Shown: positions 17,374 to 53,282, numbered from the stretch's first letter. The stretch is 64,000 bases of DNA from an uncultured Verrucomicrobiae bacterium (GCA_963808535.1 CAWEGF010000025.1:213660-277659), one strand, 5' to 3'. The notes: generated by a model not told the origin, from the letters alone. A program made the numbers and translations.

Positions 17374-17871
17374 ATGTCTTTCGCATGGCTCCATAAGAAG
17401 ATCTCCCGCCGGGGTTCGATCGTCGCGATCTGCGTTGCGGTCTTGGTCACCATTGCCTGCCTGCAGGTTTCCCTATCAATTTACGAGTCTAAAATTGACG
17501 GGGATACCCCGGAAATCTGCCGGCTTTACCTGGAGCAGAGCGCCTTTGTTCATGACCACTTCGGGAAGTTGCAAGAGGAGCACTTTCTGAGAAGCGAAAG
17601 CACGGCTTTTACCCAAGATCCAAGTTCAGGCACCATGGGGCTTTATACTTTCAAGATTTCAGGAACCAAGGCAAAGGGGACTTTAAAAATGGTCTGGGCC
17701 AGAGAATTGGATAACGGCGCTTTGACGGTCAGTGTTGTGAATATCGTCGACGAAATCCCTCTCTCCAACCCAGTTGAAGCGGATGATCAGAAAGTTGCCG
17801 TCCCGGAACTTTCAGGTCTTCCCACTGGTCAAATAGCGTTAGTCCTTCTAAGCTTGGAGATGATGCACTAG
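17374..17871 (+). CDS. hypothetical membrane-anchored protein
   Basis: I prefer the start MSFAWLHKKISRRGSIVAICVAVLVTIACLQ, giving one N-terminal TM helix followed by a ~130-aa soluble domain. It bears a weak resemblance to Coa1-type assembly proteins; this is unverified. Confidence 0.5.
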   Translation: MSFAWLHKKISRRGSIVAICVAVLVTIACLQVSLSIYESKIDGDTPEICRLYLEQSAFVHDHFGKLQEEHFLRSESTAFTQDPSSGTMGLYTFKISGTKAKGTLKMVWARELDNGALTVSVVNIVDEIPLSNPVEADDQKVAVPELSGLPTGQIALVLLSLEMMH

Positions 17872-28481: not shown

Positions 28482-29414
28482 TCAGTGGCGTTTCACCGTG
28501 GCGACGGCCAGCACCAGAATGATCAAGATGCCTTGAGCAACCTGCTGCAATCCACCGGCTAAGCGAAGCACCTGCATGGTCGTCACAACCATGACCAGGA
28601 AAATAGAACCGAGGAAAGTCCCCAGAGCAGTAGCCTTGCCTCCGAGAATTGATGAGCCGCCGACGACCACGGCCCCCACAGATTGTAATAAAAAGGGGTT
28701 TCCCATTTCGAGAAAAGCTCCGCCGACCCGAGCTGACAATAGAACTCCACCGAGCGCCGCGAGCACTCCGCTGATCACATAGGCTACTAGCCGAGTCGTT
28801 TTCACTCGAACGCCGGCCAGGTAGGCCGCCTCCGAATTTTGCCCGATCGCGGCCAGACTTCGGCCGTAAACCGTTCGATGCAACAAAAGGTAGGCCAAAA
28901 AACTGGCCGCCAGAGCCAGGATCAGGAGAACCGGTATATCTGCGATTCGCGTGCTCGCCAATGAAACCAGCAACGGGCTGACAGCATAGGTGCGAAAACC
29001 ACGGTTGAAGATCAACGTCCCGGTGGTCAGGATATAGCCCACCGCCAGCGTAGTGATGATCGGGGGAATTCGCAGATGATTAATTGTTAGGGCGTTTAGA
29101 ATACCGACCGTACTCCCCAGCAAAACGACAACCGCCAAGCCACTAATCAACTGGCCATCATTCCCGCTGATGACACTGGTTGCCAGAAATCCGGACAGAG
29201 TCATCACATTGGGGATCGACAAATCAACAGCGCCGTCTCCTGTCGTTACCACCAACATTTGCCCAATTGCCACTACGCAGAGAACCGCTGCCGAGGCCAG
29301 AATGCCACTCAAACTGCCGATGCTCACTTGCCCTGAACCCGCAGACAAGAGGGTCCACAAAACCAGCGTTCCTAAGAGTGCCCAGACCCAGGATTGCTCA
29401 AAAAATCGTTTCAT
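28482..29414 (-). CDS. CUT2-type sugar ABC transporter permease (RbsC-like)
   Basis: 310 aa and polytopic. VVTTGDGAVDLSIPNVMTLSG corresponds to the GGIDLSVG region of RbsC-like permeases. It has a 4-bp overlap with the upstream gene. Confidence 0.85.
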   Translation of the reverse strand: MKRFFEQSWVWALLGTLVLWTLLSAGSGQVSIGSLSGILASAAVLCVVAIGQMLVVTTGDGAVDLSIPNVMTLSGFLATSVISGNDGQLISGLAVVVLLGSTVGILNALTINHLRIPPIITTLAVGYILTTGTLIFNRGFRTYAVSPLLVSLASTRIADIPVLLILALAASFLAYLLLHRTVYGRSLAAIGQNSEAAYLAGVRVKTTRLVAYVISGVLAALGGVLLSARVGGAFLEMGNPFLLQSVGAVVVGGSSILGGKATALGTFLGSIFLVMVVTTMQVLRLAGGLQQVAQGILIILVLAVATVKRH

Positions 29415-31033
29415 GACCGCCGCCAGAGCATAGTTCTCAAGACCACGATTCCCAGCAGGATGAAACCCTGAACCGCCGCAATGAAGTCCGAGCTGACCTG
29501 AAGAAAACCCAATAGGGCGCCCAAAAGCGCCAAGGTCACGGAAGCCAGAACTACTCCGATCGGATCAATTCGACCACCTACCAAATCACAACCGCCCATC
29601 ACGACGGCGGCGACACTTAAGAGAGTGTAGCTGACCGCGGCATTGACATCAGACGCAGTGTTTACTCCGGTCAGACAGAGACCGGCAGCAAGCCCAAAGA
29701 GCCCGCTGGTCAGATACGTCCAGACATGAAAACGGACGGCGGGCCATCCAAGCTCTCGCATGGCTGGGAGATTGTTACCAAACCCGCGAAGAACAATTCC
29801 AAAACGCGTTCGCAAAAGCAGGGTGCCGACCGCCATACTGGCCCCAATCACCAACACCGGAAACGGGAGAAAAGGGATCGAAAAACTGAAGAATCGACTT
29901 AACCATTCCGGACAAGCACCGCCAGGCATCGGTTGCAAGGCATACCCCAGGCCTATCCAGACGAACGAACTGCCAAGGGTTGCCACAATCGCGGGGATCC
30001 GACGTAGATAGATCAACGCACCGAGCAGGGCATAAGCGATCAACCCGGCCACGAGCGCAAGAACACCCCAGAACGGCTGTTCCACCAGCAGAGTAGCGCT
30101 GATGACATTCGTCAGTCCGGCAAACCCTCCGATTCCAAGATCGATTTCGCTCCGGCCAACCACGAACATCTGTCCAAGTGAGACTAGCGTCAGAGGCATG
30201 GCGGTGGCTAATAATAACTCGACGCCGAAGGGAGAGATGGCATGCGGATTTAAGGTCCCGATGGCGATCATTACCGTCAAAAGAGCAAGAAGCGGAATCA
30301 ACCAGTTAGGAAAGTACCATCTAGGCCCGCTCTTCTCAGCGATGGCTGCTCCCTCGTTAGCGCCCAGACCAAAGGCCGTCGCCACCAGGGCCTCCCGGCT
30401 AACCGTTGTCCCCGAGATCTCCTTGGCAACCAGTCCCCGGACAAAGACCAGCACCCTCGAGCAGTTCTGAAACTCCACATCTTCCGAACTGTGCCAAATA
30501 ACTAACTTCCCGGTACGAGCGATCTCTTGAAGAGTCTGATAAAATTCGGCTTTCACTCCGACATCCACTCCCCGGGTCGGATCGTCCAGCAACAATATTT
30601 CGGTGCCGGTTAGCAGCGCCCGCGTGAAAAGCGCCTTCTGCTGGTTACCACCACTCAGGTCCGTGATCGGCTTTTCCAGGGCCGCATCCGGGAAGCTAAA
30701 TCGTTTCATCCAAGGGACAGCCCAGCCGCGCTCTTCGCGGTCCGATATGCCACTCCAGGGCCGGCGACCCATTTGCCGCGCAATGGTCATGTTCAAAAGT
30801 GTGGACCACAAAGAAAAAATCCCCTCCTTTTGCCGATCACCGGTCACGTAAGAGACGCTACCGATCCGCCGAACACCCTTGGAGAGGCCACGCCGGTGAC
30901 GAAAGATAGCTCGGAGTATCCTGACCTGACCGCTTCCTTCGAGTCCGGCCAGACCGACAATTTCACCAGCCCGCAGTTCGATCTTCTTCGGGACCGCCGC
31001 GGACAGGAACGGGCGATCAATCTCTACTCGCAC
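29411..31033 (-). CDS. fusion of the second ABC nucleotide-binding domain and a CUT2 permease domain
   Basis: 540-aa continuous ORF. The N-terminal ~235 aa form an NBD2 (GLAGLEGSGQ degenerate Walker A, LSGGNQQK signature, LLLDDPTRGVD Walker B). This runs directly into a polytopic permease (GQMFVVGRSEIDLGIGGFAGL) with no stop or start between. Confidence 0.8.
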   Translation of the reverse strand: MRVEIDRPFLSAAVPKKIELRAGEIVGLAGLEGSGQVRILRAIFRHRRGLSKGVRRIGSVSYVTGDRQKEGIFSLWSTLLNMTIARQMGRRPWSGISDREERGWAVPWMKRFSFPDAALEKPITDLSGGNQQKALFTRALLTGTEILLLDDPTRGVDVGVKAEFYQTLQEIARTGKLVIWHSSEDVEFQNCSRVLVFVRGLVAKEISGTTVSREALVATAFGLGANEGAAIAEKSGPRWYFPNWLIPLLALLTVMIAIGTLNPHAISPFGVELLLATAMPLTLVSLGQMFVVGRSEIDLGIGGFAGLTNVISATLLVEQPFWGVLALVAGLIAYALLGALIYLRRIPAIVATLGSSFVWIGLGYALQPMPGGACPEWLSRFFSFSIPFLPFPVLVIGASMAVGTLLLRTRFGIVLRGFGNNLPAMRELGWPAVRFHVWTYLTSGLFGLAAGLCLTGVNTASDVNAAVSYTLLSVAAVVMGGCDLVGGRIDPIGVVLASVTLALLGALLGFLQVSSDFIAAVQGFILLGIVVLRTMLWRRS

Positions 31034-31043: not shown

Positions 31044-31835
31044 TCAGGTGAAACGGCCAGCCCCGGTCCGGCTGGTGAGGCTCGAACTTTCGGCTACTTT
31101 GTCGGCGGCCGAGAGCCATTTTATCAGGTCCTGTTCATTGGTCTCCTGGCGAGCGCCACACCAGACCAGGCCGCCATCCCGCATCACTAGAAAATCCTGG
31201 GCGAGATCGAGAATCTCACCCAGTCGATGCCCGATGAAAACTACGGAGAGGCCAGCGTCACTCCGTTGGCGCAAATAGGTTAGCAACTGATGTGCTCGAC
31301 GGGCGTCCAGCGATGAAGTTGGCTCATCCAGAATGAGCACCTTCAATCCTGGATCGAGGAATGCCCGGGCGATTTCCACCATCTGGCGGTCCGCCAGGCT
31401 CAAAGCCCCCGCTTCGAGTCCGGTGCGGATCCGATTTTGCGGGAAAATTGCGTCAAGAGTTCCTTTGATCGCTCGTTCGGCTTTTCGACGCCAGCCAATC
31501 CCGCGAAAAGTCGACGCGAATTCCAGGAGGACATTTTCGCCGACCGTCAGGTTGGTACAGAGAGAGAGTTCCTGATGGACGACCCTAATCCCTAGCGACC
31601 GAGCCTGCTGGGGCGAGTAATTCCCGAAATCGATCGGATGGCCTTCGATCGTCAACCGGCCGTCGTTCGGGGTCTGGGTTCCCGACAAAATTCTGGTCAG
31701 CGTCGATTTACCCGCCCCGTTCCCACCGAGCAAGGCCGTAATCTTGCCGCGGCAAACTTCCAGAGACACATCTTTTACTGCTGTGGTGGCTCCAAACTTC
31801 TTCGTTAAATGCTCTGCGGTAACGACGGAATGCAT
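31044..31835 (-). CDS. sugar ABC transporter ATP-binding protein, first NBD (probably continuous with 29411-31033 across a frameshift)
   Basis: 263 aa. Motifs GGNGAGKST (Walker A), LSLADRQMVEIARA (signature) and LILDEPTSSLD (Walker B) are present. It ends 10 nt before the GTG of the NBD2 ORF, which has no Shine-Dalgarno sequence. The NBD2 frame is already open from about 31100. Confidence 0.85.
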   Translation of the reverse strand: MHSVVTAEHLTKKFGATTAVKDVSLEVCRGKITALLGGNGAGKSTLTRILSGTQTPNDGRLTIEGHPIDFGNYSPQQARSLGIRVVHQELSLCTNLTVGENVLLEFASTFRGIGWRRKAERAIKGTLDAIFPQNRIRTGLEAGALSLADRQMVEIARAFLDPGLKVLILDEPTSSLDARRAHQLLTYLRQRSDAGLSVVFIGHRLGEILDLAQDFLVMRDGGLVWCGARQETNEQDLIKWLSAADKVAESSSLTSRTGAGRFT

Positions 31836-31929: not shown

Positions 31930-32961
31930 TTACTTCCCAACCAGATTCTTTTCTACCCAGTCCTGGCTGTAGCTTGGACTAACAATCTGACCTGGAGGCA
32001 AGCTGGCATAATCTTTAAGATTTTCCAAGGTCACACTCGCTCCCGGCATCTTAATGACTTTCGGCACATTTTCTCCATTGAGCACCGCCAGAGTAAGCCA
32101 AAAAGCCGCTCCGCCGATTCCCGGAGCGGTATTGGCAGAAACAGTTGGATAAGTGCCTTTTTTGTTTTGGTCGTCCCACCACTTGAGGAAATTGGAGCTC
32201 CCGCCGCCTTGAATAATCGGAAGCTTGCGTCCGCTCTGTTCAAAGGCCTGCACAATGCCTATATCATCGCCACCGCCCTGGGCAATAACCGCATCGACGT
32301 TTTTCAAGGTGGGCAGGATGTTGGAAACGGCCGATTGAGCAACCGAAGTGGTGGCCTGTCCGTAGATTTCGCCTATCACGTTAATCCCCGGATATTTCTT
32401 CAGCACTTCTTTCTGGGAATCAGAAATAATCTTATCCGGAGCTGAACCCTGCACTCCCCGCACCAGCAACACGTCACCCTTCCCTTTCAACAGGTCCTTG
32501 GCGATATAGTCGGCCATTCCTCCGAAAATGCCGACCATATCAAAATCCAACTTGTAGGCGCAATCGGCGGTGGCGATTGAATCAAAAGCGATAATCTTGA
32601 TTCCGGCCTGGCAGGCTTTGTCGATCACTCCATTTAAAGCGGTGGGTGAAGCAGCGTTGATCGCGATGGCGTCCACGCCCTTCAAAATCAGACTGCTAAT
32701 TTGAGAATTCTGCTGATTCACCGTTCCATCGCCATTTTCGATGGAATACTCAGAAATCAAGCCCTCTGCTTTGGCCTTCTCCGCCGCCTCTTTAAAGGCA
32801 TCGACCATCTGGCGGCGCCAGATGTTGCCGTAGTACGAATTAGAAAGCGCGATCTTCCATTTCTTCTTTTGGTCGGCACTCTTGCCGGCGTCTTCAGCTT
32901 TGCCATGCGTCAGTATTCCGAGCACGACTGCCGCAAAAATGAGGGGGATATATTTTCTCAT
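31930..32961 (-). CDS. sugar ABC transporter periplasmic binding protein (RbsB-like, PBP type I)
   Basis: 343 aa with signal peptide MRKYIPLIFAAVVLGILTHGKA. It has a typical IALSNSYYGNIWR N-lobe start and alternating beta-alpha pattern. Confidence 0.85.
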   Translation of the reverse strand: MRKYIPLIFAAVVLGILTHGKAEDAGKSADQKKKWKIALSNSYYGNIWRRQMVDAFKEAAEKAKAEGLISEYSIENGDGTVNQQNSQISSLILKGVDAIAINAASPTALNGVIDKACQAGIKIIAFDSIATADCAYKLDFDMVGIFGGMADYIAKDLLKGKGDVLLVRGVQGSAPDKIISDSQKEVLKKYPGINVIGEIYGQATTSVAQSAVSNILPTLKNVDAVIAQGGGDDIGIVQAFEQSGRKLPIIQGGGSSNFLKWWDDQNKKGTYPTVSANTAPGIGGAAFWLTLAVLNGENVPKVIKMPGASVTLENLKDYASLPPGQIVSPSYSQDWVEKNLVGK

Positions 32962-33243
32962 GACGGTTTCGGTATTGATTAGTTTCTCAGGGGGAATTCG
33001 CGAGGCGGGGTCAATTTTTGCTGGTCAACCGACGGCCTCCGCAATCAGCAGAGCCTGAGCGTAGAAAAAAGGGCATTGACTCCGCCGAGTTGCACCGGAC
33101 CGTCGCCGAAGCTTATCGTAGAAGCCCGGCTCTGCCTTTAGCACAGGCGGAAAGATGTGTCGCCATGGCGGAACTGCCGGCATTTGGAGTTCGCCTGCCG
33201 CGCCACCTGTGCTAACGATGCTCATTGATCCCCCAATCGCCAC

Positions 33244-35109
33244 ATGCCCGCCCAGTCAATCAGCGAAAATCGCATCTTGCTCCAAACCTCGGAATTAAGC
33301 TGCTTCTTTGAACCCCAGACCGGCTTTCTACGCCAAGTGATGGTGGACGGTCACGAGGTCATTCGAGCGATCTACGGCGCCGTGCGCGATCAGAATTGGA
33401 ATACCGTGCCACCGGAGATTGTGGTTAGCCGGATCACTTCGAGCGACGAACATTTTCATCTGGAATTTCAGGTCAAATGTTCTTCCACCGGGATCGTTTT
33501 CAGCTGGAATGGAACGATCGAGGGAAGAGCGGGAACACTTTCCTTTGCCTTCGCTGGTCAAGCGGAATCCACTTTTAAGAAAAACCGAATTGGCCTTTGC
33601 CTTCTCCACCCGATTCAAGGATGCGCTGGCCAGCCATGCCGGGTTCGGGAAACGGGTCAAAGTTGGGTAGAATCAGAATTCCCTCTTTTCATTTCACCGC
33701 ATCAGCCATTCAAAAATCTGGGCGCCATTTCATGGAAGCCGACGCGAAATCTCGAAGCTACCGTGAGCTTTGCCGGCGATGTTTTCGAGACCGAGGATCA
33801 AAGGAACTGGACGGACGCTTCCTTTAAAACCTATTGCACGCCGCTCGATAAACCCTTTCCGGCAGAGATCACGGCGGGCACGCCGGTCCATCAGCAAATA
33901 ACGGTTGAACTTGATCGCACCACCCCTTCATCGGTTGTTGTGAGCGAACCCTCATCCGAAGTGATTTTGATCAGTGCGCAGGGAGAAAAATCGCTTCCCG
34001 CACTAGGTTTGGGCCTCGGCAACTACGGCGGAACGCTGAGCGAAACCGAGCGAGCCCGCCTGGCAGCCCTGAATTTGCATCACCTTCGCGTCGATATTTG
34101 CTTCGACGATCCGCGATGGAGTGAATCGCTGGAGAGGGCCACCACCGTGGCAAAAGAAATTGGCACCCGCCTGCAGCCGGCCCTTTTTTTCTCCGCACCG
34201 GAAGATCTTCGCGCTTTCAGCAGAACAGTCGACCATCAGATTTTGCAGAGCTGTCTTATTTTTCATAGCCAGGAATCATCCACTTCCGAACAATGGCTGG
34301 AGTTAGCCGCCGGGTTGTTATCTCAAACAGCGGTCGTAGGCGGGACTAACTCTAATTTTACCGAACTGAATCGCCACCGCCCAACCACCCGCTTTCCGAC
34401 CGCTTTCTCCCTCAATCCTCAAGTCCATGCCTTCGACGATCTGAGCTTGATCGAGAACCTGGAGGGTCAACCAGAGGTGATCCAGAGCGCCAGGCAGTTT
34501 TGCGGCACCGGTCTCTACGTTTCTCCAGTCACCCTTCGACCACGCTCCAATCCGGGCGCGGACACCCTGCCTCTTGAATCGTCCGGTCGTTTGCCTTTCT
34601 CCGTTGATCCTCGTCAGCGTACTCTTTTCGGGGCCACCTGGACGGTGGGTTCTCTTGCTCGACTACTTCCGGCATCCGGAATCGAGAGCCTCACCTACTA
34701 TGAAGCGATCGGGTGGAAAGGGGTGATGGAATCCGAGCAAGGCCATCCCCGTCCCCATCAATTCGGGTCCAGCCCCGGGGAGATTTTTCCCGTGTATCAC
34801 GTCTTCCGCGCTCTGGCTGAGGCCGAAGCACTGTTCCCGGTAACTAATCCGGTACCGCAAAAAATCGCCGTCGTCGGATTTCGTCAGAAGGGAACCGTCC
34901 ATGTTCTGCTCGCTAATCTGCAATCCGAAATCTCCATCGCCAAGCTACTTTTGCCGGCTGATCGGATCGCGGTCCAGATGTTAAGCGAAGACCATTTAGC
35001 GGCGGTTCGGCAAGAAAGATTGCCAGATCCGGAGATCCGACACCTGGTGGGCGGCGAAGCAGTTTTTGCTCTCCCGAGCTACGCGCTGGTGATCCTTCGA
35101 TGCATTTGA
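33244..35109 (+). CDS. hypothetical 621-aa cytoplasmic protein in a sugar-utilisation locus (function unknown)
   Basis: A long uninterrupted ORF with coding-like composition and no signal peptide. The antisense ORFs are short. I cannot assign a family by eye. Confidence 0.7.
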   Translation: MPAQSISENRILLQTSELSCFFEPQTGFLRQVMVDGHEVIRAIYGAVRDQNWNTVPPEIVVSRITSSDEHFHLEFQVKCSSTGIVFSWNGTIEGRAGTLSFAFAGQAESTFKKNRIGLCLLHPIQGCAGQPCRVRETGQSWVESEFPLFISPHQPFKNLGAISWKPTRNLEATVSFAGDVFETEDQRNWTDASFKTYCTPLDKPFPAEITAGTPVHQQITVELDRTTPSSVVVSEPSSEVILISAQGEKSLPALGLGLGNYGGTLSETERARLAALNLHHLRVDICFDDPRWSESLERATTVAKEIGTRLQPALFFSAPEDLRAFSRTVDHQILQSCLIFHSQESSTSEQWLELAAGLLSQTAVVGGTNSNFTELNRHRPTTRFPTAFSLNPQVHAFDDLSLIENLEGQPEVIQSARQFCGTGLYVSPVTLRPRSNPGADTLPLESSGRLPFSVDPRQRTLFGATWTVGSLARLLPASGIESLTYYEAIGWKGVMESEQGHPRPHQFGSSPGEIFPVYHVFRALAEAEALFPVTNPVPQKIAVVGFRQKGTVHVLLANLQSEISIAKLLLPADRIAVQMLSEDHLAAVRQERLPDPEIRHLVGGEAVFALPSYALVILRCI

Positions 35110-36071
35110 AAAGAGAGTCTGCGCCCGCATCTGGTTTGTTGGCAATCGCTGACCGGCTAACTTTTGAACCGCATCGAATCAGTCTGGATCCCACCGGTCA
35201 CTATCAGGAAAGCTTTGATCGCGAATTTCCCTTCATCATTAAACTCTTCTCATTTCGGCACAAGGATTTCACCCCTGGGTTGACTTGGCATGAGCGCTTG
35301 GAAATTTATCTGCCCCTCGATGGCATTTCTCGAATGCAGATGGGAACGCGCCGAGTCGAATTGCTCCCGGGTGAGCTGTTGGTGGTCGATAACCTGCAAC
35401 TTCATACCACGGTGGATTTTCCCGGTTTTGCCTCGCGGGTGATCGTGATCAGCTTTTTGCCGGAGTTCGTCTATAGCCTTGGTTCGCCCTCGCACGACTA
35501 TCTATTCTTGCTCCCTTTCTACTCCCGGATTGATTCCCAAACTCAGGTAGTGCGGCAGGACTCGCCGACCCTGCAAAAAATTCACCAAACGCTGGCTCAA
35601 CTTCTGGAATGTTACTTTTCCCGAGAACCTTATTACCAGGCCGGTTGCAAAGCCTATCTGCTCGAACTCTTGTTCCTTTTGGCGCAACATTTCCGGGCCT
35701 CAGATTTTCTTCGATCCCAACTTATCCGGCAACAAGAGAGAGCCGCCAGGTTGAAACCGGTTTTTGACTTTATTAGTTCGCACTACCCCGAGCCGATTAC
35801 CCTGAACTCGGGAGCCGAACTGGCCAAGATGAGCCTGCCCTCTTTTACCCGGTTATTCAAAAAAGTAGCCGGAATGACCTTTGTCAGTTACGTCGCTCAC
35901 GTTCGACTTTCGCAGGCTCTTCGCCTGCTCAAGGAAAGTTGTCTCACGGTCGCCGAGGTGGCTAACCGGGTGGGCTTTTCCGATCAAAGTTATTTCGATC
36001 GCAAATTCCGATCCGCTTTCGGGCAAACTCCCAGCAGCGTCCGCAAGGAGGCCTCGGCGACCGATGGGTAA
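35100..36071 (+). CDS. AraC-family transcriptional regulator
   Basis: 323 aa. It has a cupin-like N-terminal half and a C-terminal double HTH (MSLPSFTRLFKKVAGMTFVSYV, VAEVANRVGFSDQSYFDRKFRSAFGQTP). Confidence 0.85.
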   Translation: MHLKRESAPASGLLAIADRLTFEPHRISLDPTGHYQESFDREFPFIIKLFSFRHKDFTPGLTWHERLEIYLPLDGISRMQMGTRRVELLPGELLVVDNLQLHTTVDFPGFASRVIVISFLPEFVYSLGSPSHDYLFLLPFYSRIDSQTQVVRQDSPTLQKIHQTLAQLLECYFSREPYYQAGCKAYLLELLFLLAQHFRASDFLRSQLIRQQERAARLKPVFDFISSHYPEPITLNSGAELAKMSLPSFTRLFKKVAGMTFVSYVAHVRLSQALRLLKESCLTVAEVANRVGFSDQSYFDRKFRSAFGQTPSSVRKEASATDG

Positions 36072-36152
36072 ACTTATTAACATAGCGGTGGAATTAATTG
36101 CCGCTGGCCCCGAAAGCTAGTCTTAAAACCATACCTAACGAAAACTAATACC

Positions 36153-36986
36153 ATGAAAATCGCGCTACTCGGAGCAGGTGGAAAAATGGGATCCCGGCTG
36201 ACAGCTAACCTTCGCCATCTGCCGCACTACCAAATCAGCTACATTGAGCCTGATGCCGACGGAAGCCGGCAATTGGCCGCTCACGGGATCAAGACCATCG
36301 CCGTCGAGGAGGCGCTCCGCGAGGCCGAAGTCGTCGTTCTGGCGATCCCCGATCGTCTGATTGGAAAAGTGACTCGCGAATTAGTGCCAAGACTAAACGC
36401 CGGGACGCTGGTCTTTGGTCTTGACCCGGCGGCCGCCTACGCTGGTCTATTACCTGACCGCTCGGACATCACTTACTTTATTGCCCACCCTTGCCACCCG
36501 CTCCTCTTTTCGGATACTGCTCCGGCCAATCAGGCGAGTGACTGGTTTGGGGGACAAAGCACTCTTCCTCAGAGTGTCGTCTGCTCTCTTTTCCAAGGTC
36601 CTGAAGAGCATTATGGGCTCGGAGAAAAGTTGGCGGGCGAAATGTTCGCTCCCATTCTTCGACTGCACCGGATCACCATCGAGCAAATGGCGATCCTGGA
36701 ACCGGCCGTCGTCGAGTCAACGATGGCGACCTGTATCACCGTCTTACGCGAAGCAATGGAAACGGCCGTGCAAAAAGGGGTGCCCAAGCAAGCGGCCTAT
36801 GATTTCTGCCTGGGCCATATTCGCACCGAGCTAGCGATTGTCTTCGGATTTGCCGAATTCCCTTTCTCCGATGGAGCCCTGAAAGCCATCGAGCAGAATA
36901 AGCCGCGGATCTTCCGGGAGGATTGGAAAGATGTCATCACCATTCCAGCCTTGAAAGAAAGCGTTCGCCAAATCTGCGAAGCTTAA
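36153..36986 (+). CDS. NAD(P)-binding oxidoreductase (6-phosphogluconate-dehydrogenase-like Rossmann N-terminus)
   Basis: 277 aa. MKIALLGAGGKMGSRL is the dinucleotide-binding loop. The specific substrate is unknown. Confidence 0.65.
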   Translation: MKIALLGAGGKMGSRLTANLRHLPHYQISYIEPDADGSRQLAAHGIKTIAVEEALREAEVVVLAIPDRLIGKVTRELVPRLNAGTLVFGLDPAAAYAGLLPDRSDITYFIAHPCHPLLFSDTAPANQASDWFGGQSTLPQSVVCSLFQGPEEHYGLGEKLAGEMFAPILRLHRITIEQMAILEPAVVESTMATCITVLREAMETAVQKGVPKQAAYDFCLGHIRTELAIVFGFAEFPFSDGALKAIEQNKPRIFREDWKDVITIPALKESVRQICEA

Positions 36987-37010
36987 AAGATCGTCTCATC
37001 TGTGGCAGAC

Positions 37011-37045
37011 GAACGATGAACGATGAACGATGAACGGTGAACGCC
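37011..37045. repeat. heptanucleotide tandem array GAACGAT x3 + GAACGGT + GAACGCC (core TGAACG)
   Basis: The direct reading is gac gaacgat gaacgat gaacgat gaacggt gaacgcc. It lies 25 bp after the upstream stop and about 105 bp before the next start. Confidence 0.85.
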
Positions 37046-37151
37046 TAAGGCAAGGACAAAAAACCGCTAAGTGTCAGTTTTGTCCTAAAAATAGATGTAA
37101 GCCTTCTAGTCACCGCAGGAGCCGGCGCATAGCATCTGAAGATCCCCCCAA

Positions 37152-38180
37152 ATGAAGAACTTACGGGTTGCCGTCGTCGGTTGCGGTTTCTGGTCCCGTT
37201 TTCAGGTCCCAGCCTGGCAAGAACTTTCCGACGTCGACTGCGTCGCGGTGTGCGACCTGGATGAAGACCAGGCCAAACAGACCGCGAGTGCTTTCGGCAT
37301 CAAAAACTTCTACGCCGAAGCCGCCAGGATGATTCAAGAACAGCGTCCCGATGTTCTTGATGTGATCACTAGTCCGGCGACCCACCGACAAATGGTCGAG
37401 TTGGCGACGCTGACCAAGACGCCCGTCATCTGCCAGAAACCGATGGCGAATGATTTCGCTGAGGCCAAGGCCATGGTTCGCCTTTGTCAGGAAGCGCAAG
37501 TCCCATTCTTTGTCCACGAGAACTGGCGCTGGCAACGGCCCATCCGGGAACTGAAGAAAATTCTCGATTCCGGTCGGATCGGGCCTCCTTTCCGGGCTCG
37601 AATAGATTTCAACACCAGTTTTCCGGTCTTCACCAACCAACCTTTTCTCCGCGACTTGAAGCAATTGATTCTGGCAGATCTCGGCACTCACCTTCTGGAT
37701 GCGGTCCGTTTTTTATTCGGCGAAGCAAAGCAACTATTCTGTCAGCTGCAAAGAATCGATCCCGGCATCGCCGGGGAGGATGTGGCCACCGTTCTTTTAG
37801 AAATGCAAAATGGGATGACGGTGATCTGCAACCTGAGCTTCGCCAGTCGCACGGAAATGGAACGGTTTCCGCAGACCTTTGTTTTCGTCGAAGCAGCGGG
37901 CGGTTCGGTCGAATTGGCTCCAGATTTCAGCCTTCGGGTGACTGACACCGAGGGCACCTTTGCCAGGCGCTGTCCTTCTCCCGTTTACCGATGGGCTGAT
38001 CCCGACTACGCGCTGGTTCATGCCAGCATCGTGGAGTGTCATCGCGATCTCCGGGACGGATTGCTCGGAACCAAAGCCGCCGAAACGACCGGGGTCGACA
38101 ACCTTCGTACACTCGAACTCGTCTTCGGTGCTTATGAGAGCGCTGAGAAAGGCGCGGTCGTGGCAATGAGACCGCAGTAG
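37152..38180 (+). CDS. Gfo/Idh/MocA-family oxidoreductase
   Basis: 342 aa. MKNLRVAVVGCGFWSRFQ is the Rossmann N-terminus, and the VICQKPMA block is typical of the family. Confidence 0.85.
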   Translation: MKNLRVAVVGCGFWSRFQVPAWQELSDVDCVAVCDLDEDQAKQTASAFGIKNFYAEAARMIQEQRPDVLDVITSPATHRQMVELATLTKTPVICQKPMANDFAEAKAMVRLCQEAQVPFFVHENWRWQRPIRELKKILDSGRIGPPFRARIDFNTSFPVFTNQPFLRDLKQLILADLGTHLLDAVRFLFGEAKQLFCQLQRIDPGIAGEDVATVLLEMQNGMTVICNLSFASRTEMERFPQTFVFVEAAGGSVELAPDFSLRVTDTEGTFARRCPSPVYRWADPDYALVHASIVECHRDLRDGLLGTKAAETTGVDNLRTLELVFGAYESAEKGAVVAMRPQ

Positions 38181-38196: not shown

Positions 38197-39108
38197 GTGA
38201 GCATCAAATACAAGATTCTGGATCCCAGCTCCGCAGCGCAACCGCCGGTGACCACGGTTTTGTCGCTGCGCTGTTTGCGTTCGGGCGCCGGCGCTTCATG
38301 CGACTTCCATTCTCATCCCTTTCCCGAGTTCACCCTGGTCACCGACGATTCCACGATCAACGGTTGGGCTTTGGGGAAAATCGGCTCTGCCCCAAATACG
38401 CTCTATCTCTTTCTGCCAGGAGAACCTCACGGCCATTGGAATTCATCCACCCAACGACCTCGCTTCTGGGTTATCCACTTCTCCGCGGCTCTGCTGGCTT
38501 CGTTACCTCATTTGGCTGACCCGGATCCAGCCCGGCGGGTCTGGAAACTGACGGAAGAGCAAACGACCACCTTCCGCTGGCTTTTTATCAAGCTCTTCAA
38601 TGAACATACTCATTCGCTGGCCTTCAACCGATTCGCGGAAATGTCCTGGCTGCAACTGCTGCTCATCAGCGTGGAAAGATGGGTCGCTGGCACCGATTAC
38701 CAAAAGTTGCTCCCTGAGGAACCGGATAGCGATGTGCTCCAACTTTGGCATATGGTCAACGAATGCGTCGGCCGATCCTCGCAATTCGTGAAGCAGATTA
38801 GCCGGATGGCCAACTACGACTCGGTCCGGCATCGTTTTAAGAGCTTGTTCGGTCTTTCGCCGACCCAATTGCTGGCCCGCTTGCGGATGCAAAAGGCGCA
38901 ACATCTCCTCCTTGATACCGCGTTAAGCGTTAAGCAGATTTCCAGTTGTCTCGGGTATGATCGCCAGCACGAATTTGCCCGCGCTTTTCGGAAACAGATT
39001 GGTTTAAGTCCGTCCGCTTGGCGCCATAATCCGTTGCCGAAAGAAATCTCGCCTGATCCGCCAACGCACGATGATTTTCCAAACAGGCTAAATCCAAAAC
39101 AAAATTAA
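38197..39108 (+). CDS. AraC-family transcriptional regulator (second copy)
   Basis: 303 aa with a GTG start. The C-terminal HTH pair is ISRMANYDSVRHRFKSLFGLSPTQ and VKQISSCLGYDRQHEFARAFRKQIGLSP. Confidence 0.8.
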   Translation: MSIKYKILDPSSAAQPPVTTVLSLRCLRSGAGASCDFHSHPFPEFTLVTDDSTINGWALGKIGSAPNTLYLFLPGEPHGHWNSSTQRPRFWVIHFSAALLASLPHLADPDPARRVWKLTEEQTTTFRWLFIKLFNEHTHSLAFNRFAEMSWLQLLLISVERWVAGTDYQKLLPEEPDSDVLQLWHMVNECVGRSSQFVKQISRMANYDSVRHRFKSLFGLSPTQLLARLRMQKAQHLLLDTALSVKQISSCLGYDRQHEFARAFRKQIGLSPSAWRHNPLPKEISPDPPTHDDFPNRLNPKQN

Positions 39109-39147: not shown

Positions 39148-40075
39148 ATGAAGACAGTTATTCTTGGCGCCGGCGCAATGGGCAGTGTTATGGGAGGACT
39201 CCTGGCCCGAGGAGGCAACGAGGTGGTTCTGGTCGACGTCGCGAAAGAGATCGTCCACGCGATTGAGCAGGACGGTCTGAAGATTGAGGATAAATCCGGT
39301 CAACATTCGATCGTCAAACTCAAGGCCACCAATGATCCGCGCCAGATCGGGATAACTGATCTGCTAATCGTTTTTGTAAAGTGTTACCACACCGAAACCG
39401 CTGTCCGGCAAGCCGCTCCGATGATTGGGCCGAACACCATCGTTCTCTCCTTACAAAACGGATGGGGAAACGCTGACTTGATTAGCAAACTCACCGGACC
39501 CGAGAGACTCCTGGTCGGCGTCAGCTATCATAGTGCCGTGCTGCTCGGCCCCGGACATGTGCTCCATGCCGGCCAAGGCCCTACTTACCTGGGAGAACTG
39601 GATGGCAGGGCTTCCACGCGCGTGAACGCGATTACCGAGCTTTTCGGATCGGCCGGGATCAGCATCACGCCTTCGTCGAACGTTCTCAATGAGATCTGGT
39701 CCAAACTGGCCCTGAATGCGGTTACCCTGCCTACCTCAGCCTCGATTCGGATTACGGCGGATCAACTGCTGCGCACGCCCGAAATGGAACGCCTGATGGA
39801 AGGGCTACTGACCGAAGTTGTGGCGGTCGCCCGGGCCCAAAAAATATCGCTCAATTTTGACGAACGTTGGCAGGCCATCCGCAATTTGCTCAGCCAAGCT
39901 GGCCCCGAACACCAAGGGATCGATGCTGCAGGACGTTGAACGCCGTCGTCAAACTGAAATCGACGTAATCAACGGTGCGATCATTGAAGCCGGCGCCCGA
40001 TTCGGGATACCAACTCCCTATAATCAATCGATGCTCTGCCTGATCAAAGCCCTTGAGCAATCTTTTGTCGCTTAG
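39148..40075 (+). CDS. 2-dehydropantoate 2-reductase family (ApbA/PanE-like) oxidoreductase, split by an apparent +1 frameshift at C4 39903-39906
   Basis: The N-terminal ORF has MKTVILGAGAMGSVMGGLLARGG. The C-terminal ORF in the next frame has NTKGSMLQDVERRRQTEIDVINGAIIEAGARFGIPTPYN, the ApbA_C signature. Removing one C joins ...LLSQAGPNTKGSMLQD. Confidence 0.8.
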
Positions 40076-40084
40076 GTTACTGCG

Positions 40085-40852
40085 ATGTCTACCAGGATCA
40101 GATTTTTCGGCGTCGCCGCCTACGAACTGACGACCAAGGCAGGCCTCCATATCCTGATCGATCCTTTCCTCGATGAGAATCCGGGAAGTCCCGTAAAGTC
40201 TGCTGAATTGCCGAGGGTCGACCTGATTCTGGTTAGCCATGCAGCACCCGATCATCTCGGCGACACCGAATCAATCGCCCGCCGAACCGGGGCGCCGGTC
40301 ATTTGCGGGGGCGAAGTGAAGGCTTACCTGATGGCCAAAGGGATTCCGGCAGAACAGATCCGGGCGACGACCTGGGGCATCGCCGTGGAAGTGGCCGGGG
40401 TAAAAGTGCAGCCTTTGGAGTGCCATCATTGGTCACAGATCAGAATGCCTGACGGCACCTTCGCCAGCGGCGTACCGATGGCTTTCATCGTCTATACCGA
40501 TCCCGGGGTCCGTTTCTATCACTATGGCGATACCGCTATCTTTTCGGATCTAAAGCTCCAGGCTGAACTTTATCAGCCGACCGTGGGATGCGTCGGGATT
40601 GCCAATCCCGAAGAGATCCTTCATCGAAATCCGATGCCGGGACGCATGTTGACCGCCGAAATGAGTCCTTTAGAAGGCGCTTTGGCGGCCCGTTGGCTGG
40701 GGCTGAAAACGGTTCTGCCATGTCATTATATCAATCCCGATTGCCCTGAAGTGCGCGAGTTCGAGGAGCATCTTGCTCTGGCGGAAAAGGAAGGGGCGCA
40801 AGTTCCTCGTTCGATCGTCCTGAAGCCGGGGGAGAGCTTTGACTCAGTATGA
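40085..40852 (+). CDS. MBL-fold (Lactamase_B_3 / UlaG-like) metal-dependent hydrolase
   Basis: 255 aa. IRFFGVAAYELTTKAGLHILIDPF and DLILVSHAAPDHLGD resemble the UPF0173/UlaG-like group, but the motif reads SHAAPDH rather than HxHxDH. Confidence 0.65.
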   Translation: MSTRIRFFGVAAYELTTKAGLHILIDPFLDENPGSPVKSAELPRVDLILVSHAAPDHLGDTESIARRTGAPVICGGEVKAYLMAKGIPAEQIRATTWGIAVEVAGVKVQPLECHHWSQIRMPDGTFASGVPMAFIVYTDPGVRFYHYGDTAIFSDLKLQAELYQPTVGCVGIANPEEILHRNPMPGRMLTAEMSPLEGALAARWLGLKTVLPCHYINPDCPEVREFEEHLALAEKEGAQVPRSIVLKPGESFDSV

Positions 40853-41863
40853 AAGCGGCGATTTTTGATGCTCCCTTCCGGATGCATGTCGGGTTCTGGG
40901 AACAACCAGTCCCCGGCTCCCGACGAAGTTGTTGTCACGGTCAGCGCGGCGGGAATTTGCGCGGGCGACCTGCACATCTATTCAGGTAAAAGTCCCTACG
41001 CCCAGTTTCCGATCATTGGCGGTCACGAGATTTGCGGAACGGTAGCCAGCCTGGGCGAGAAGGTCAGCGGTTTTTCGCCGGGCCAACTGGTGGTGGTCGA
41101 ACCCTTCCTTAGTTGCGGAACCTGCTACCCCTGCCGGGTAGGAAAACCGAATTGCTGCGCCCGCCTGCAAATCATCGGTGTCCATCGCCCGGGAGGCTAT
41201 GCTGAAGCTGTGCTGGTGCCGGCGACTCACCTGCATAAAGTCCCAGCAGACGTCCCTCCTTTGTGGGCTGCCTTCGCGGAGCCGGTAACGATTGGAATTC
41301 ACGCTTGCCGTCGCGCCGGCGTTCTCCCGGGTGAATACGTTTTGGTTCTCGGTTGTGGCCCGATTGGCCTGGCGATTATCGAAGTAGCTTTGGCCAGCAA
41401 AGCCCGGGTCGTCGCCGTGGACGTCAATCAACAACGATTGGAAACCGCCAGGAACCTTGGGGCAGAAGTCCTTTCCGGAGGCGACGGTCTGCTCGCTGAA
41501 GTATTGGCCCATACCAATCAGGAAGGTGCTCCCGTCGTGATTGAAGCAACCGGCAATCCCACCGTCATTGAATCAACCGTCGATCTGGTGGCCGCCGGCG
41601 GACGCATCGTCATCGTGGGCTTAACTTCCCGCGCGGTCAGCGTGAAATTCCCAGGCTTGGATTTTACCCGGAAAGAACTAACGATCCTGGGTTCCCGAAC
41701 CGAGGTTAACTGTTTTCCCGACGCGCTGGCTCTTTTGGCTTCCGGGAAGATTAACTTTCCGCGGGTGGCCAGCCAGTTCTCACTCTGGTCGGCCCCGGAA
41801 GTCTTTGAGGATCTATCACTTCACCCCGGTCAGACCCAAAAAGGAGTGTTAGTCCAGGATTAA
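40849..41863 (+). CDS. zinc-dependent medium-chain alcohol/polyol dehydrogenase, N-terminus split by an apparent +1 frameshift at 40911-40916
   Basis: ATG 40849 forms an ATGA overlap with the upstream stop and reads MKAAIFDAPFRMHVGFWEQPVP. The next frame continues APDEVVVTVSAAGICAGDLHIYSG, GGHEICGTV, CGTCYPCRVGKPNCC and GCGPIGL. The track ORF starts at 40865. Confidence 0.85.
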
Positions 41864-41867
41864 ACCG

Positions 41868-42743
41868 ATGCGTCTCTATACTTTTACTACCGAAGGCCAA
41901 CAGCACTTGGGTGCGGAGCAATCTCCGTCTGGAGAATTGGTTCATCTACACGCCATCGATCCGGCGATTCCGGACAGCTTACTCGAATTTATTCGCGGCG
42001 GCCAAGAGGTGCATCGATTAGCTCGTCAAGTGATGATGGCTAGTCCATCCAGCGTCTATCAACTGGCGGATGTTTCCTTGGCCGCGCCCCTGGCTCGACC
42101 AGGGAAAATTCTTTGCTCGGGAATCAACTACCGGTCCCATCAATTGGAAAATCCGCAGGCGGTCATGCCAGATGAACCATTCTTTTTTGCTAAAATGCCT
42201 TCCACGGTGATCGGGCCTGGAAGCCCGATTTTGCATCCGCCGTTTGCTGGGCAGGTAGACTACGAGATCGAATTGGCGGTCGTCATTGGGCGGCCAATGA
42301 CTTTTGTCGCCGAACCGGAAGTGATGTCTCATCTCTTCGGATACACCATCCTCAACGACGTTTCTTGCCGTGAAGTGCAAATCAAGGCCCAGCAAATCAC
42401 GCTGGGCAAGAACTTCGACACCTTCTGCCCAATCGGTCCCTGCGTCGTGACCACTGACGAACTAACTGATCCTGGCCGGGTTGGCCTTCGCACCTATCTG
42501 AACGGCAAACTAATGCAAGACGGTTCGACGTCTGACTGGATCTTCACCCTGCCGAAACTGTTGAGTTTTTTGTCCCGCGTAATGACCTTGGAGCCAGGCG
42601 ATGTGGTCAGCACTGGAACTCCCGCCGGAGTCGGTCTCTTTCGGCACCCTCCTCGTTTTTTACAACCTGGCGACCGGGTACGTCTGGAAGCCGACGGGAT
42701 CGGTATTCTGGAGAATCCGGTCGGGACGCGTGCGGCATCCTAA
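41868..42743 (+). CDS. fumarylacetoacetate hydrolase (FAH) family protein
   Basis: 291 aa. Motifs KILCSGINYRSH, DYEIELAVVIG and GDVVSTGTPAGVG are present. Confidence 0.85.
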   Translation: MRLYTFTTEGQQHLGAEQSPSGELVHLHAIDPAIPDSLLEFIRGGQEVHRLARQVMMASPSSVYQLADVSLAAPLARPGKILCSGINYRSHQLENPQAVMPDEPFFFAKMPSTVIGPGSPILHPPFAGQVDYEIELAVVIGRPMTFVAEPEVMSHLFGYTILNDVSCREVQIKAQQITLGKNFDTFCPIGPCVVTTDELTDPGRVGLRTYLNGKLMQDGSTSDWIFTLPKLLSFLSRVMTLEPGDVVSTGTPAGVGLFRHPPRFLQPGDRVRLEADGIGILENPVGTRAAS

Positions 42744-42835
42744 CTAATAACTTTTCCCCACCATGAACAGCAAAACTAACCAAGACGTCACTCGACGCGA
42801 TTCTTTCCGCCCTGCGGGAGTCTCATTCCTCCACT

Positions 42836-43861
42836 ATGAATATGAAATCTAACCGGGGCGTCTCCCGACGCGACGCTCTACGCTCCGCCGGAGTGTTGGC
42901 CGGAGCTACCTTTTTCGCCGGAATGGCCGGTGCCGAGAAGGTAACCGCTCAGGCGGCCAAAGGAGCCACCTCGGACGAAGAGTATGTTTGGCTCTCGGCC
43001 AATGCGAATTTGCCTCTTTTCGTCGCGCACGATCATCCGGCGCTCCGGTTGGTCGGCGAAGAACTGGGCGTAAAAGTCACGATTGCCGGCCCGAACAGCG
43101 TAGACATTCGAGGACTGGTCGAAGCGGTGGAACAGACCACCGCGCGAAAGCCTTCCGGGATGATGGTCGTGGGCTGGGACCCCAGCGCCCTGATCCCGGC
43201 GATTAACTCCGCGATTTCCGCCGGGATCCCGGTCGTCTGCGTCGATGCTGATGTTCCCAACAGCAAGCGTTACGCCTTTATCGGAACCGATTGGTTCGAT
43301 CTGGGAGTCAGGCAGGCCGAAGCGATGCTGAATGCTTTAGCGGGAAAAAAAGGCAAAGTAGCTCTCCTTGGCTTAATCGAACAGACCATCGATCAGCAAG
43401 CCTTTGCCGGCTTCAAATCGGTCGCCCAAAAAGCCGGATTAACCTGCCTGGATCCACAGGAAGACAAAGGGAATCAGGCCGAAGCCGCTCGGGTCGCCGC
43501 CGCTGTCATCCAGGCAAATCCCGACTTGGTCGGGATGGCAGGATTTGATTCTGAAAGCGGTCCCGGCTTTGGGCAGGCGATTAAGGAAGCCGGACTAGCC
43601 GGCAAGCTAGTGGCGACCTGTGTGGACGCGGAACCCCAACATCTCCGGCTGGTCAAAGAGGGAATATTAACCGCGGCGGTGGGTCAAAAACGGGAGCTAT
43701 TTACCTATCAAGGGGTCAAAGCATTGTATGAACTGCGTCACACCACGCTGAAATTCACCAAAGACGACAAAGCCGCTGGCGTCGTCGGCATTCCGATCAA
43801 TTACAACACTGGCACTTACACCGTGACGAAAGAGAATGTCGATCTCTTCATAAAAACATAA
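42836..43861 (+). CDS. sugar ABC transporter binding protein (PBP type I) with twin-arginine signal
   Basis: 341 aa. MNMKSNRGVSRRDALRSAGVLAGATFFAGMAGA carries a TAT motif. Confidence 0.85.
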   Translation: MNMKSNRGVSRRDALRSAGVLAGATFFAGMAGAEKVTAQAAKGATSDEEYVWLSANANLPLFVAHDHPALRLVGEELGVKVTIAGPNSVDIRGLVEAVEQTTARKPSGMMVVGWDPSALIPAINSAISAGIPVVCVDADVPNSKRYAFIGTDWFDLGVRQAEAMLNALAGKKGKVALLGLIEQTIDQQAFAGFKSVAQKAGLTCLDPQEDKGNQAEAARVAAAVIQANPDLVGMAGFDSESGPGFGQAIKEAGLAGKLVATCVDAEPQHLRLVKEGILTAAVGQKRELFTYQGVKALYELRHTTLKFTKDDKAAGVVGIPINYNTGTYTVTKENVDLFIKT

Positions 43862-43877
43862 TGATTCCTTCCGTGAG

Positions 43878-45413
43878 ATGATTGGTCGGGAAGTTCCAAT
43901 GGACGTTCCTCTCTTAAGCATGAGAGGCGTCAGGAAGAGCTTTAACGGCGTCGAGGTATTGAAGGGCGTGGACTTTGCCGTGCAAACCGGAGAAGTCCAC
44001 GCGTTAGTCGGCGAAAACGGCGCCGGGAAAAGCACCCTGATGAATCTCCTGGCGGGCGTTCATCAACCTACTTCCGGAACGATCGATTTCGCAGGATTGG
44101 CTGATCTGCAAATTCCCGATGAAAAGACTGCCCAGGAACTGGGCATCGGCATCGTTTTCCAGGAGCGGAGCCTTTTTGCTCAACTAAACCTCGCGGACAA
44201 TATTTTCGCGGCCCGGCAGCCGGCCAGATTAGGACACATTCAACGGAAAAAATTATGGGCCGAAACGCGAACCTTATTACGGCGGGTTGACCTGGACCTC
44301 GAACCGAACCGCTTAGTCGGGGATTTATCGCCAGCCCAACAACAGCTCGCCGAAATCGCCAAGGCCTTGTCGCTAAAGGCAAAGTTGATGATCTTTGATG
44401 AGCCAACCTCCTCGCTGACCGATACCGAAACCCGTGCTCTTTTTCGCGTAATTCGCCAATTGCGCGGACAAGGGGTCGGCATAATTTATATTACTCATCG
44501 TCTGGAAGAGATATTCTTGATCGCCGATCGGGTCAGCGTCTTAAAAGACGGCGAGGGTCAAGGCACTTACCGCACCGCCGAAACGAATACTAATGAATTG
44601 GTCCGCCGGATGGTCGGGCGGAGCCTGGAGCTGCGACACAAGGACGCTGTGGCCGCCGGGAATCCGATCACCTTGGAAGTGCGTAATTTTTCCGATCCCA
44701 AGAACTCTCTCCGGCCGCTCTTGAAAAATATCTCGTTTACCGTCAGGCGAGGCGAAATTGTCGGTTTTGCCGGCTTGGCAGGCGCCGGTCGAACCGAGTT
44801 GGCCCTCTCAATCTTGGGAGTTCGGCCGCGCGGCAGCGGCGAAATCTTTCTCCACGGCAAAAAGGTTTCTATTCGATCTCCCAGCGATGCCATCCGGGCG
44901 GGCCTCGGATACGTCTCTGAAGATCGGAAAGAAGGAGGCTTGTTTATGGAGATGAGTATCGCCGCTAACGTCGCGGCGGCCAATCTCCAAGCCTTCGGGT
45001 CTTGGTGGATGAGCGCCAGAAAACAACGAAGTACCGCCGAACAATTTCGACAATCTCTCCGGATTGCCTCTGCCGATGTCAAGCAACCCGTCCAGGGTTT
45101 GAGTGGTGGCAATCAGCAAAAGGTGGTTCTCGCGAAATGGCTTCTGCTTAACCCTGAAGTGCTCATTGTGGATGAACCGACTCGCGGAATAGATATCGGA
45201 GCAAAGGCAGACGTTCATCACTTTCTCTACCAACATTCGCGGAAGGGTTCCTGTGTGATCGTTATCTCATCTGAACTACCGGAGATTCTGGATGTCAGTG
45301 ATAGAATCTACGTCATGCGTGAGGGACAGATCACCGGGGAGTTAGGCCGTTTAGAGGCTACCGAAGAAAAAGTGATGCGCTTCGCATCGCTAGCTCCCCA
45401 GGAGACACCATGA
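43878..45413 (+). CDS. CUT2-type sugar ABC transporter ATP-binding protein (tandem NBDs)
   Basis: 511 aa. NBD1 has GENGAGKST, LSPAQQQLAEIAKA and IFDEPTSSL. NBD2 has GLAGAGRTEL, LSGGNQQKVVLAKWL and LIVDEPTRGIDIGAK. Confidence 0.9.
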   Translation: MIGREVPMDVPLLSMRGVRKSFNGVEVLKGVDFAVQTGEVHALVGENGAGKSTLMNLLAGVHQPTSGTIDFAGLADLQIPDEKTAQELGIGIVFQERSLFAQLNLADNIFAARQPARLGHIQRKKLWAETRTLLRRVDLDLEPNRLVGDLSPAQQQLAEIAKALSLKAKLMIFDEPTSSLTDTETRALFRVIRQLRGQGVGIIYITHRLEEIFLIADRVSVLKDGEGQGTYRTAETNTNELVRRMVGRSLELRHKDAVAAGNPITLEVRNFSDPKNSLRPLLKNISFTVRRGEIVGFAGLAGAGRTELALSILGVRPRGSGEIFLHGKKVSIRSPSDAIRAGLGYVSEDRKEGGLFMEMSIAANVAAANLQAFGSWWMSARKQRSTAEQFRQSLRIASADVKQPVQGLSGGNQQKVVLAKWLLLNPEVLIVDEPTRGIDIGAKADVHHFLYQHSRKGSCVIVISSELPEILDVSDRIYVMREGQITGELGRLEATEEKVMRFASLAPQETP

Positions 45414-53000: not shown

Positions 53001-53282
53001 CGTCCCGGCTTCTATTCCTCTCTTTTCCGACTCCGTGGAGATCCTCTTGAGTTGGCCTGTTTAAAACGCGCCGAAGATTCCGGCGATCTGCTTCTTCGAG
53101 TCTACGAACCCCATGGCGACCGGGGTCACACCATTCTTGAATCCGCGCTACCCATCGAGCGGGCGACCCTCATCAATATCCTCGAGGAACCCCTCGCCGA
53201 GCTGCCAATCAAAGATGCCCAGCGCGTGAAAATATCATTCACTCCTTTTCAGGTAATCTCACTCCGCCTCGCTTTGCGTTGA
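50069..53282 (+). CDS. GH38 alpha-mannosidase, split by an apparent +1 frameshift somewhere in 50658-50854
   Basis: The 261-aa N-terminal ORF and the 855-aa ORF overlap in adjacent frames. The second carries GHAHIDLAWLWP, WEIVGGMWVEPD and AWLPDSFGF (the GH38 catalytic N-domain). The first supplies the usual ~250-aa N-terminal extension. Confidence 0.85.

Follow-up and report, generated by a model that had tools for sequence, protein, structure and literature searches.

Gene content of the locus

The 64,000-nucleotide (nt) stretch of DNA analyzed here, from an uncultured Verrucomicrobiae bacterium (GCA_963808535.1, CAWEGF010000025.1:213660-277659) and hereafter called the window, carries a putative locus for the oxidative catabolism of the sugar D-apiose. 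On the + strand it begins with a 621-amino-acid (aa) open reading frame (ORF) whose product resembles the ApnL-type D-apionate (D-apiono-1,4-lactone) lactonases (33244-35109), and this is followed by genes for a 323-aa AraC-family regulator (35100-36071; PF12833 and PF00165), a 277-aa ApnO-type D-apionate oxidoisomerase (36153-36986) and a 342-aa ApsD-type D-apiose 1-dehydrogenase of the Gfo/Idh/MocA family (37152-38180). A second AraC-family regulator of 303 aa (38197-39108; PF12833) lies just beyond, also on the + strand. Divergently oriented, on the - strand, are genes for a 343-aa CUT2 periplasmic solute-binding protein (31930-32961), the first nucleotide-binding domain of an ATP-binding cassette (ABC) transporter (31044-31835, 263 aa; PF00005, E = 6e-26), a 540-aa protein with the second nucleotide-binding domain and a permease domain (29411-31033; PF00005 and PF02653), and a CUT2-type ABC permease (28482-29414; PF02653, E = 1e-30).

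The ORFs of an initial annotation of this DNA were all recovered at their coordinates in the ORF map, and the gene classes that it had assigned were borne out by Pfam and NCBIfam matches. It had also proposed an oxidative pathway for a rare sugar, with D-apiose as the leading candidate, and the family matches of the 621-aa, 277-aa and Gfo/Idh/MocA proteins, described in the following sections, uphold that proposal.

The ApnL homolog

The sole NCBIfam match of the 621-aa protein is NF049900, D-apionate lactonase ApnL (E = 1e-84, 285 bits, in two stretches). It also aligns with the 614-aa ApnL of the Rhizobium etli CFN 42 p42f cluster with 31% identity over 515 residues (E = 6e-58), and the R. 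etli protein itself scores 1049.7 bits on the same model. A search of 5.8 billion proteins returned more than 5,000 homologs, the top ones being 97-42% identical over their full length, and the precomputed domains of these top homologs are PF25837, PF25838 and PF25839 (Apionate_lact_N, M and C). The closest relative, in locus L088, is 97% identical; PF25837 and PF25838 are recorded for one protein at this level of identity (P0001), and relatives at 68% identity have PF25839 as well. Many of the homologs bear the name D-apionolactonase at the Joint Genome Institute (JGI). An alignment of 86 family members, R. etli ApnL included, has 22 invariant columns, and the window protein retains every one of them (among them R48, R115, E182, E184, D185, R187, N188, D191, K195 and H395). 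Genes of the ApnO and ApsD types lie 1 kb and 2 kb downstream, respectively, on the same strand.

Judged by these matches, the 621-aa protein is a diverged homolog of the known ApnL D-apionate lactonase family (EC 3.1.1.115). The initial annotation had given it as a protein of unknown function, which was a fair label from the sequence alone; the Pfam set used gave no match even at E = 10, but it apparently lacks PF25837-PF25839 and hence is uninformative on novelty. Its suggestion that the protein might belong to the lactonase family of the oxidative apiose pathways described by the Gerlt laboratory proved correct. The alternative that it offered, a new type of lactonase or isomerase, did not hold, because the protein belongs to the ApnL family.

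No solved homolog was found when the PDB was searched with the sequence up to E = 1. An AlphaFold2 model built from a 32-sequence alignment has a mean predicted local distance difference test score (pLDDT) of 88.6 and a predicted template modeling score (pTM) of 0.90, and in it the protein is predicted to fold into an N-terminal β-sandwich (about residues 11-225), a central β/α barrel (about 250-500) and a C-terminal β-sandwich (about 530-621). The nearest structures found by Foldseek are three-domain glycoside hydrolases of families GH97, GH36, GH30 and GH101 and the β-arabinopyranosidase 5XFM, with 9-11% identity and query TM-scores of at most 0.42. Since the invariant polar residues listed above lie mostly in the N-terminal sandwich (R48 through K195), with H395 in the barrel, the active site may lie where the N-terminal sandwich meets the barrel. 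A glycosidase-like predicted fold in a lactonase family that has no solved structure is, in our view, a more interesting lead than the locus itself.

The ApnO- and ApsD-type enzymes

The 277-aa protein has a Rossmann NAD(P)-binding region with a GAGGKMG motif at its N terminus and a PGDH_C domain (PF16896, E = 9e-49). Its residues 2-274 match PDB entry 5T57 (E = 3e-79), and a full-length comparison with the PGDH_C protein of the R. etli cluster gives 45% identity. Entry 5T57 is the D-apionate oxidoisomerase apnO, according to a preprint on F420 oxidoreductases. By homology, then, the protein is an ApnO-type D-apionate oxidoisomerase (EC 1.1.1.421), and the tentative placement of this small protein with the NAD-dependent oxidoisomerases in the initial annotation was right.

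The 342-aa protein matches PF01408 and PF22725, and its best PDB match, 5UHW (E = 4e-82), stands far above the next (E = 2e-19). Entry 5UHW, which we take to be annotated as ApsD, is itself an ortholog of the dehydrogenase of the R. etli cluster (638 bits), to which the window protein is 37% identical over 340 aa. These matches identify the Gfo/Idh/MocA protein, at the level of family, as an ApsD-type D-apiose 1-dehydrogenase (EC 1.1.1.420), the type that the initial annotation had suspected. NCBIfam gave no apiose-specific match for either of these two window proteins; it gave none for R. etli ApnO and ApsD either, so its silence here is uninformative.

Conserved neighborhoods

The window genes were compared with the loci of relatives (numbered L001 and so on). 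The pair of an ApnL-like gene and a PGDH_C gene is present in all five of the independent metagenome contexts examined and, among 80 genome loci of many different phyla, in about one in four, and this recurrence indicates that their co-location is not due to chance. In L001 (ApnL 68% identical to that of the window) binding-protein and ABC genes are followed by ApnL, AraC, PGDH_C and AP_endonuc_2 genes, and in L002 (ApnL 67%) the gene order is as in the window, the downstream cluster included. L003 (ApnL 49%) has PGDH_C and AP_endonuc_2 genes, while L004 and L005 (ApnL 48%) have binding-protein and ABC genes, RpiB, Dak1, Dak2, ApnL, PGDH_C, AP_endonuc_2 and AraC; the RpiB of L004 matches a D-erythrulose-4-phosphate isomerase model with 165 bits. 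The best match among GTDB species representatives, L008, is a Verrucomicrobiae metagenome-assembled genome (ApnL 49%) with ApsD, ApnO, AP_endonuc_2, ApnL and AraC genes. ApnL proteins of the window type are always paired with ApnO in L001-L005, L008 and L010, and in a rough neighbor-joining tree of 86 ApnL-like proteins all members of the window clade are ApnO-linked. The nearest ApnL relatives bear Verrucomicrobia or Chthoniobacteraceae names.

The family as a whole is broader. The 80 genome loci were those with ApnL homologs of 36-44% identity, in which ApnO and ApsD genes were sought within 10 kb, and about half have neither inside that distance. The function of the ApnL family is thus not uniform, or its genes are not always clustered with those of the pathway. 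We also note that ApnL-like proteins with 29-44% identity occur in contexts without ApnO or ApsD; in one of them, L007 on Mesorhizobium ciceri pMESCI01 (10016-11911), the gene accompanies an aldolase/citrate-lyase family gene, an NAD(P) oxidoreductase gene and a CUT1 transporter. Further, uncharacterized specificities probably exist within the Apionate_lact family.

Importer and regulation

The binding protein matches PF13407 (E = 4e-51), and among PDB entries it matches 4PE6 best (E = 2e-56). The binding proteins that adjoin ApnL and ApnO genes in L001-L005 and L010 share 64-92% identity with it, and from this association we infer that its ligand is D-apiose. The binding protein of R. etli has solved structures, 5IBQ and 4RY0, the first of which presumably contains bound apiose. 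The permease (28482-29414) is akin to AraH, AlsC and RbsC but falls under their NCBIfam cut-offs; it is kept beside ApnL in L001-L005, L056, L084 and L088.

Relatives have the ABC gene as one ORF of 807-840 aa in which two ATPase domains and a permease domain are fused (807 aa in L002 and L088, 821 aa in L003 and 840 aa in L004), a fusion that is unusual among CUT2 transporters. In the window it is split into the 263-aa and 540-aa ORFs by a 1-nt insertion at about 31086, located by alignment with L088 (94% DNA identity). The split gene may be a pseudogene or the product of a sequencing or assembly error, and error is as likely as decay because comparable oddities occur in the nearest relatives, which seem to come from long-read assemblies.

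The start of the first AraC gene (35100-36071) overlaps the ApnL stop by 10 nt, and an ortholog follows ApnL in L001, L008 and L010 (56-59% identical in the latter two). The second AraC gene (38197-39108) is conserved only in L002 and lies at the border with the neighboring cluster (39148-46399). The divergent promoter region that separates the binding-protein gene from that of ApnL contains two non-coding blocks (33077-33105 and 33128-33175). Their sequence is unchanged in L001, L002 and L088, despite an identity of just 67-68% for the flanking proteins of L001 and L002. Each block occurs once in the window. They are likely candidates for AraC operator and promoter sites. An RNA was also considered for these blocks and set aside, as they have no Rfam match.

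The proposed pathway and its alternatives

The homology of the enzymes to those of a characterized cluster and the conservation of the neighborhoods are directly observed, and on these grounds we consider it very probable that the locus serves to import D-apiose and to carry it through the first three steps of the oxidative pathway already known for this sugar. D-apiose would enter through the periplasmic binding protein and the CUT2 ABC importer. ApsD (37152-38180) would then convert D-apiose and NAD+ to D-apiono-1,4-lactone, the ApnL homolog (33244-35109) would hydrolyze the lactone to D-apionate, and ApnO (36153-36986) would turn D-apionate into 3-oxo-isoapionate by an oxidation with a hydroxymethyl shift, in the manner of a ketol-acid reductoisomerase running in reverse. 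The divergent promoters are probably controlled by the AraC protein whose gene overlaps that of ApnL, acting through the conserved intergenic blocks. In the closest relatives the later steps would fall to a protein with the xylose-isomerase fold (AP_endonuc_2), a Dak-type kinase and an RpiB-type isomerase.

Several observations weigh against this interpretation. The 285 bits of the window ApnL are far under the 750-bit equivalog cut-off of NF049900; the L004 protein, whose context is that of the decarboxylase variant (AP_endonuc_2, Dak and RpiB), scores 286.5 bits, and the model seems to be tuned to proteobacterial sequences. The family is broad, as the half of the 80 loci without nearby ApnO and ApsD genes attests. 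The binding protein is just 25% identical to that of R. etli and belongs to a different CUT2 lineage, and the importer gene is interrupted by the frameshift. Finally, Pfam searches of the picked ORFs of at least 150 aa across the 64 kb found no DUF1537 kinase, RuBisCO-like, AP_endonuc_2, Dak or RpiB protein, nor did tblastn searches seeded with R. etli and L004 sequences reveal any lower-pathway gene in the window. The window thus encodes just uptake and the conversion of D-apiose to 3-oxo-isoapionate, and the lower pathway presumably lies elsewhere in the genome.

The low NF049900 score and the unlike binding-protein lineage would also fit the same enzyme families acting on another rare or branched sugar or sugar acid, with the ApnL-like protein cleaving a different lactone, as would the many ApnL-like proteins in unrelated contexts (for example that of Mesorhizobium pMESCI01, with its aldolase and CUT1 transporter) and the many loci without partner genes. 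We consider such a substrate very unlikely: three enzymes of consecutive apiose steps occur together, the ApnO and ApsD proteins have full-length identity (45% and 37%) to the reference cluster, the ApnO reaction requires a substrate with a branched hydroxymethyl group, and the binding protein of the sister locus L008 is 66% identical to that of R. etli. That the 621-aa protein is instead a glycoside hydrolase, such as an apiosidase that frees apiose from plant glycans, is more improbable still. The predicted sandwich-barrel-sandwich architecture and the identity of the best structural matches speak for a glycosidase, but those matches are distant in both sequence and TM-score, the protein has, by its sequence, no signal peptide, and the translation of its gene is coupled to that of a cytoplasmic pathway. 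Moreover, the family is named after ApnL, and NCBIfam curates a lactonase equivalog for it that the R. etli member passes.

A decaying, non-functional locus, with the importer and the neighboring PanE-like gene as pseudogenes, would account for the two 1-nt insertions relative to close relatives, at about 31086, where the fused ABC gene is split, and at about 39889, where the PanE-like gene is truncated. Against it, the ApnL, ApnO, ApsD and binding-protein genes and both AraC genes are all full length, and the nearest relatives, which to judge by their contig names are long-read assemblies, show odd gene calls of their own (a 91-aa AraC in L002 and a 639-aa ABC protein in L001), so indel errors fit the insertions; decay is in our estimation unlikely, if less remote than the two alternatives above. 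The locus is best described as a new, diverged instance of a known pathway, the oxidative one for D-apiose, of which it has only the upper half.

The branched pentose D-apiose is a component of rhamnogalacturonan-II and apiogalacturonan in plant cell walls. To judge from the names of the nearest homologs, the locus probably extends the oxidative pathway of 2018 to an uncultured soil lineage of Verrucomicrobiota. Beyond this gain in annotation it adds little. There is, however, an annotation gap: the curated NCBIfam equivalog model scores the window ApnL clade far under its cut-off, and R. etli ApnL itself is labeled "hypothetical protein" in the record used, while many relatives of the window protein are D-apionolactonases at JGI.

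The neighboring cluster and ApnO-free clusters

Downstream of the second AraC gene, at 39148-46399, is a further cluster with a PanE-like reductase, a metallo-β-lactamase (MBL)-fold hydrolase, a Zn-dehydrogenase, an FAH-family protein and a second CUT2 transporter, and its link to apiose is uncertain. The first gene (39148-40075) encodes a homolog of the PanE/ApbA-like 2-dehydropantoate reductases that is frameshifted by the insertion at about 39889; its product is 263 aa long, compared with 298 aa in L001 and L002, and the C-terminal remainder lies in a different frame, in an ORF at 39818-40075. The natural substrate class of PanE, 2-oxo acids with a quaternary C3, is similar to 2-oxo-apionate. 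The MBL-fold hydrolase, Zn-dehydrogenase (40865-41863), FAH-family protein, binding protein, ATPase and permease genes (40085-46399) make up another sugar cluster, which includes a CUT2 transporter of its own. The FAH-family protein is closest to the 2,4-didehydro-3-deoxy-L-rhamnonate hydrolase model, with 185 of 500 bits, and no dehydratase was seen in the cluster at 40085-46399. We considered the FAH-family protein as the missing β-keto-acid decarboxylase and set it aside, as its gene adjoins ApnL in L002 but not beyond.

A different type of cluster, free of ApnO, is found in L014, L031, L056, L062 and L084 (about positions 6500-17900 of each). It contains genes for a cyclase-family protein (PF04199), an RPE-like protein, a 2-hydroxyacid dehydrogenase, ApsD-like and ApnL-like proteins and a short-chain dehydrogenase/reductase (SDR), and there is no ApnO gene within 10 kb in any of the five. 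By record title, L014, L031 and L056 come from Chloroflexota, Armatimonadota and Myxococcota; L062 is from Chloroflexia and L084 from Actinomycetes. A GHMP kinase gene is present in three loci of this type and URO-D-like genes in some. Apionate or a related sugar acid may be handled by such clusters independently of ApnO, and this combination of ApsD with ApnL in the absence of ApnO, in other phyla, is a more interesting lead than the locus itself.

In L014, L031 and L056 a Zn-dehydrogenase 57-65% identical to that of the window is encoded beside the ApsD-ApnL pairs, and L056 also has both of the transporter types of the window. One might therefore imagine that the neighboring cluster takes part in apiose or apionate metabolism as an undescribed branch, either a new fate of 3-oxo-isoapionate or an ApnO-independent route, but we regard this as doubtful. 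The FAH and PanE homologs do not recur beyond close relatives, and L001 has both AP_endonuc_2 and the neighboring cluster, so the latter is not a simple replacement for the decarboxylase.

Elsewhere in the window are genes unrelated to this locus, for a 471-aa ankyrin-repeat protein (504-1919), a GlgE-type maltosyltransferase (1916-3916) and a GH38 α-mannosidase (50715-53282).

Comparison with known systems

The predicted ApnL protein has the same domain order as the three-domain glycoside hydrolases (PDB 2JKA, 4FNP, 3KL0, 5A58 and 5XFM), but it is only about 10% identical to them, and its invariant polar residues make no recognizable glycosidase catalytic pair.

The oxidative D-apiose cluster of R. 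etli p42f (ApsD, ApnL, ApnO, OiaK and the RuBisCO-like OiaX/OiaC) is reportedly the work of Carter and colleagues, published in 2018. In the CFN 42 genome the p42f cluster holds ApsD, ApnL and ApnO together with the binding protein, a four-carbon acid sugar kinase and the RuBisCO-like protein OiaX, and the 614-aa "hypothetical protein" that is ApnL lies between the Gfo/Idh/MocA gene and Dak genes. The window shares with it the three upper-pathway enzymes (ApnL 31%, ApnO 45% and ApsD 37% identical), a CUT2 importer and clustered regulation. It differs in having no genes for the four-carbon acid sugar kinase, RuBisCO-like protein, TIM, RpiB or Dak. Its regulators are of the AraC type, whereas that of R. 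etli is of the NanR (GntR) type, and the ABC ATPase of the window type is fused to a permease domain, unlike that of R. etli. The divergence in sequence is also plain from the 25% identity of the binding proteins and from the ApnL scores on NF049900 (285 bits in the window and 1049.7 in R. etli). The study of Carter et al. (2018, Nat Chem Biol 14:696) is cited in the reference list of PMC12994016.

For its ApnL, ApnO, binding protein and AraC, the window has its nearest counterparts in the decarboxylase-variant loci (L001, L003, L004, L005, L008 and L010), with identities of 42-68% for ApnL, 68-86% for ApnO and 64-92% for the binding protein. The decarboxylase variant of the pathway, a name used in MetaCyc, employs a 3-oxo-isoapionate decarboxylase of the xylose-isomerase family, an L-erythrulose kinase and isomerases, and leads from 3-oxo-isoapionate through L-erythrulose and L-erythrulose 1-phosphate to erythrose 4-phosphate. 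We take the AP_endonuc_2, Dak and isomerase set of the relatives to be this branch of D-apionate degradation. The position after ApnO, which in L001 is held by AP_endonuc_2, is occupied by ApsD in both the window and L002.

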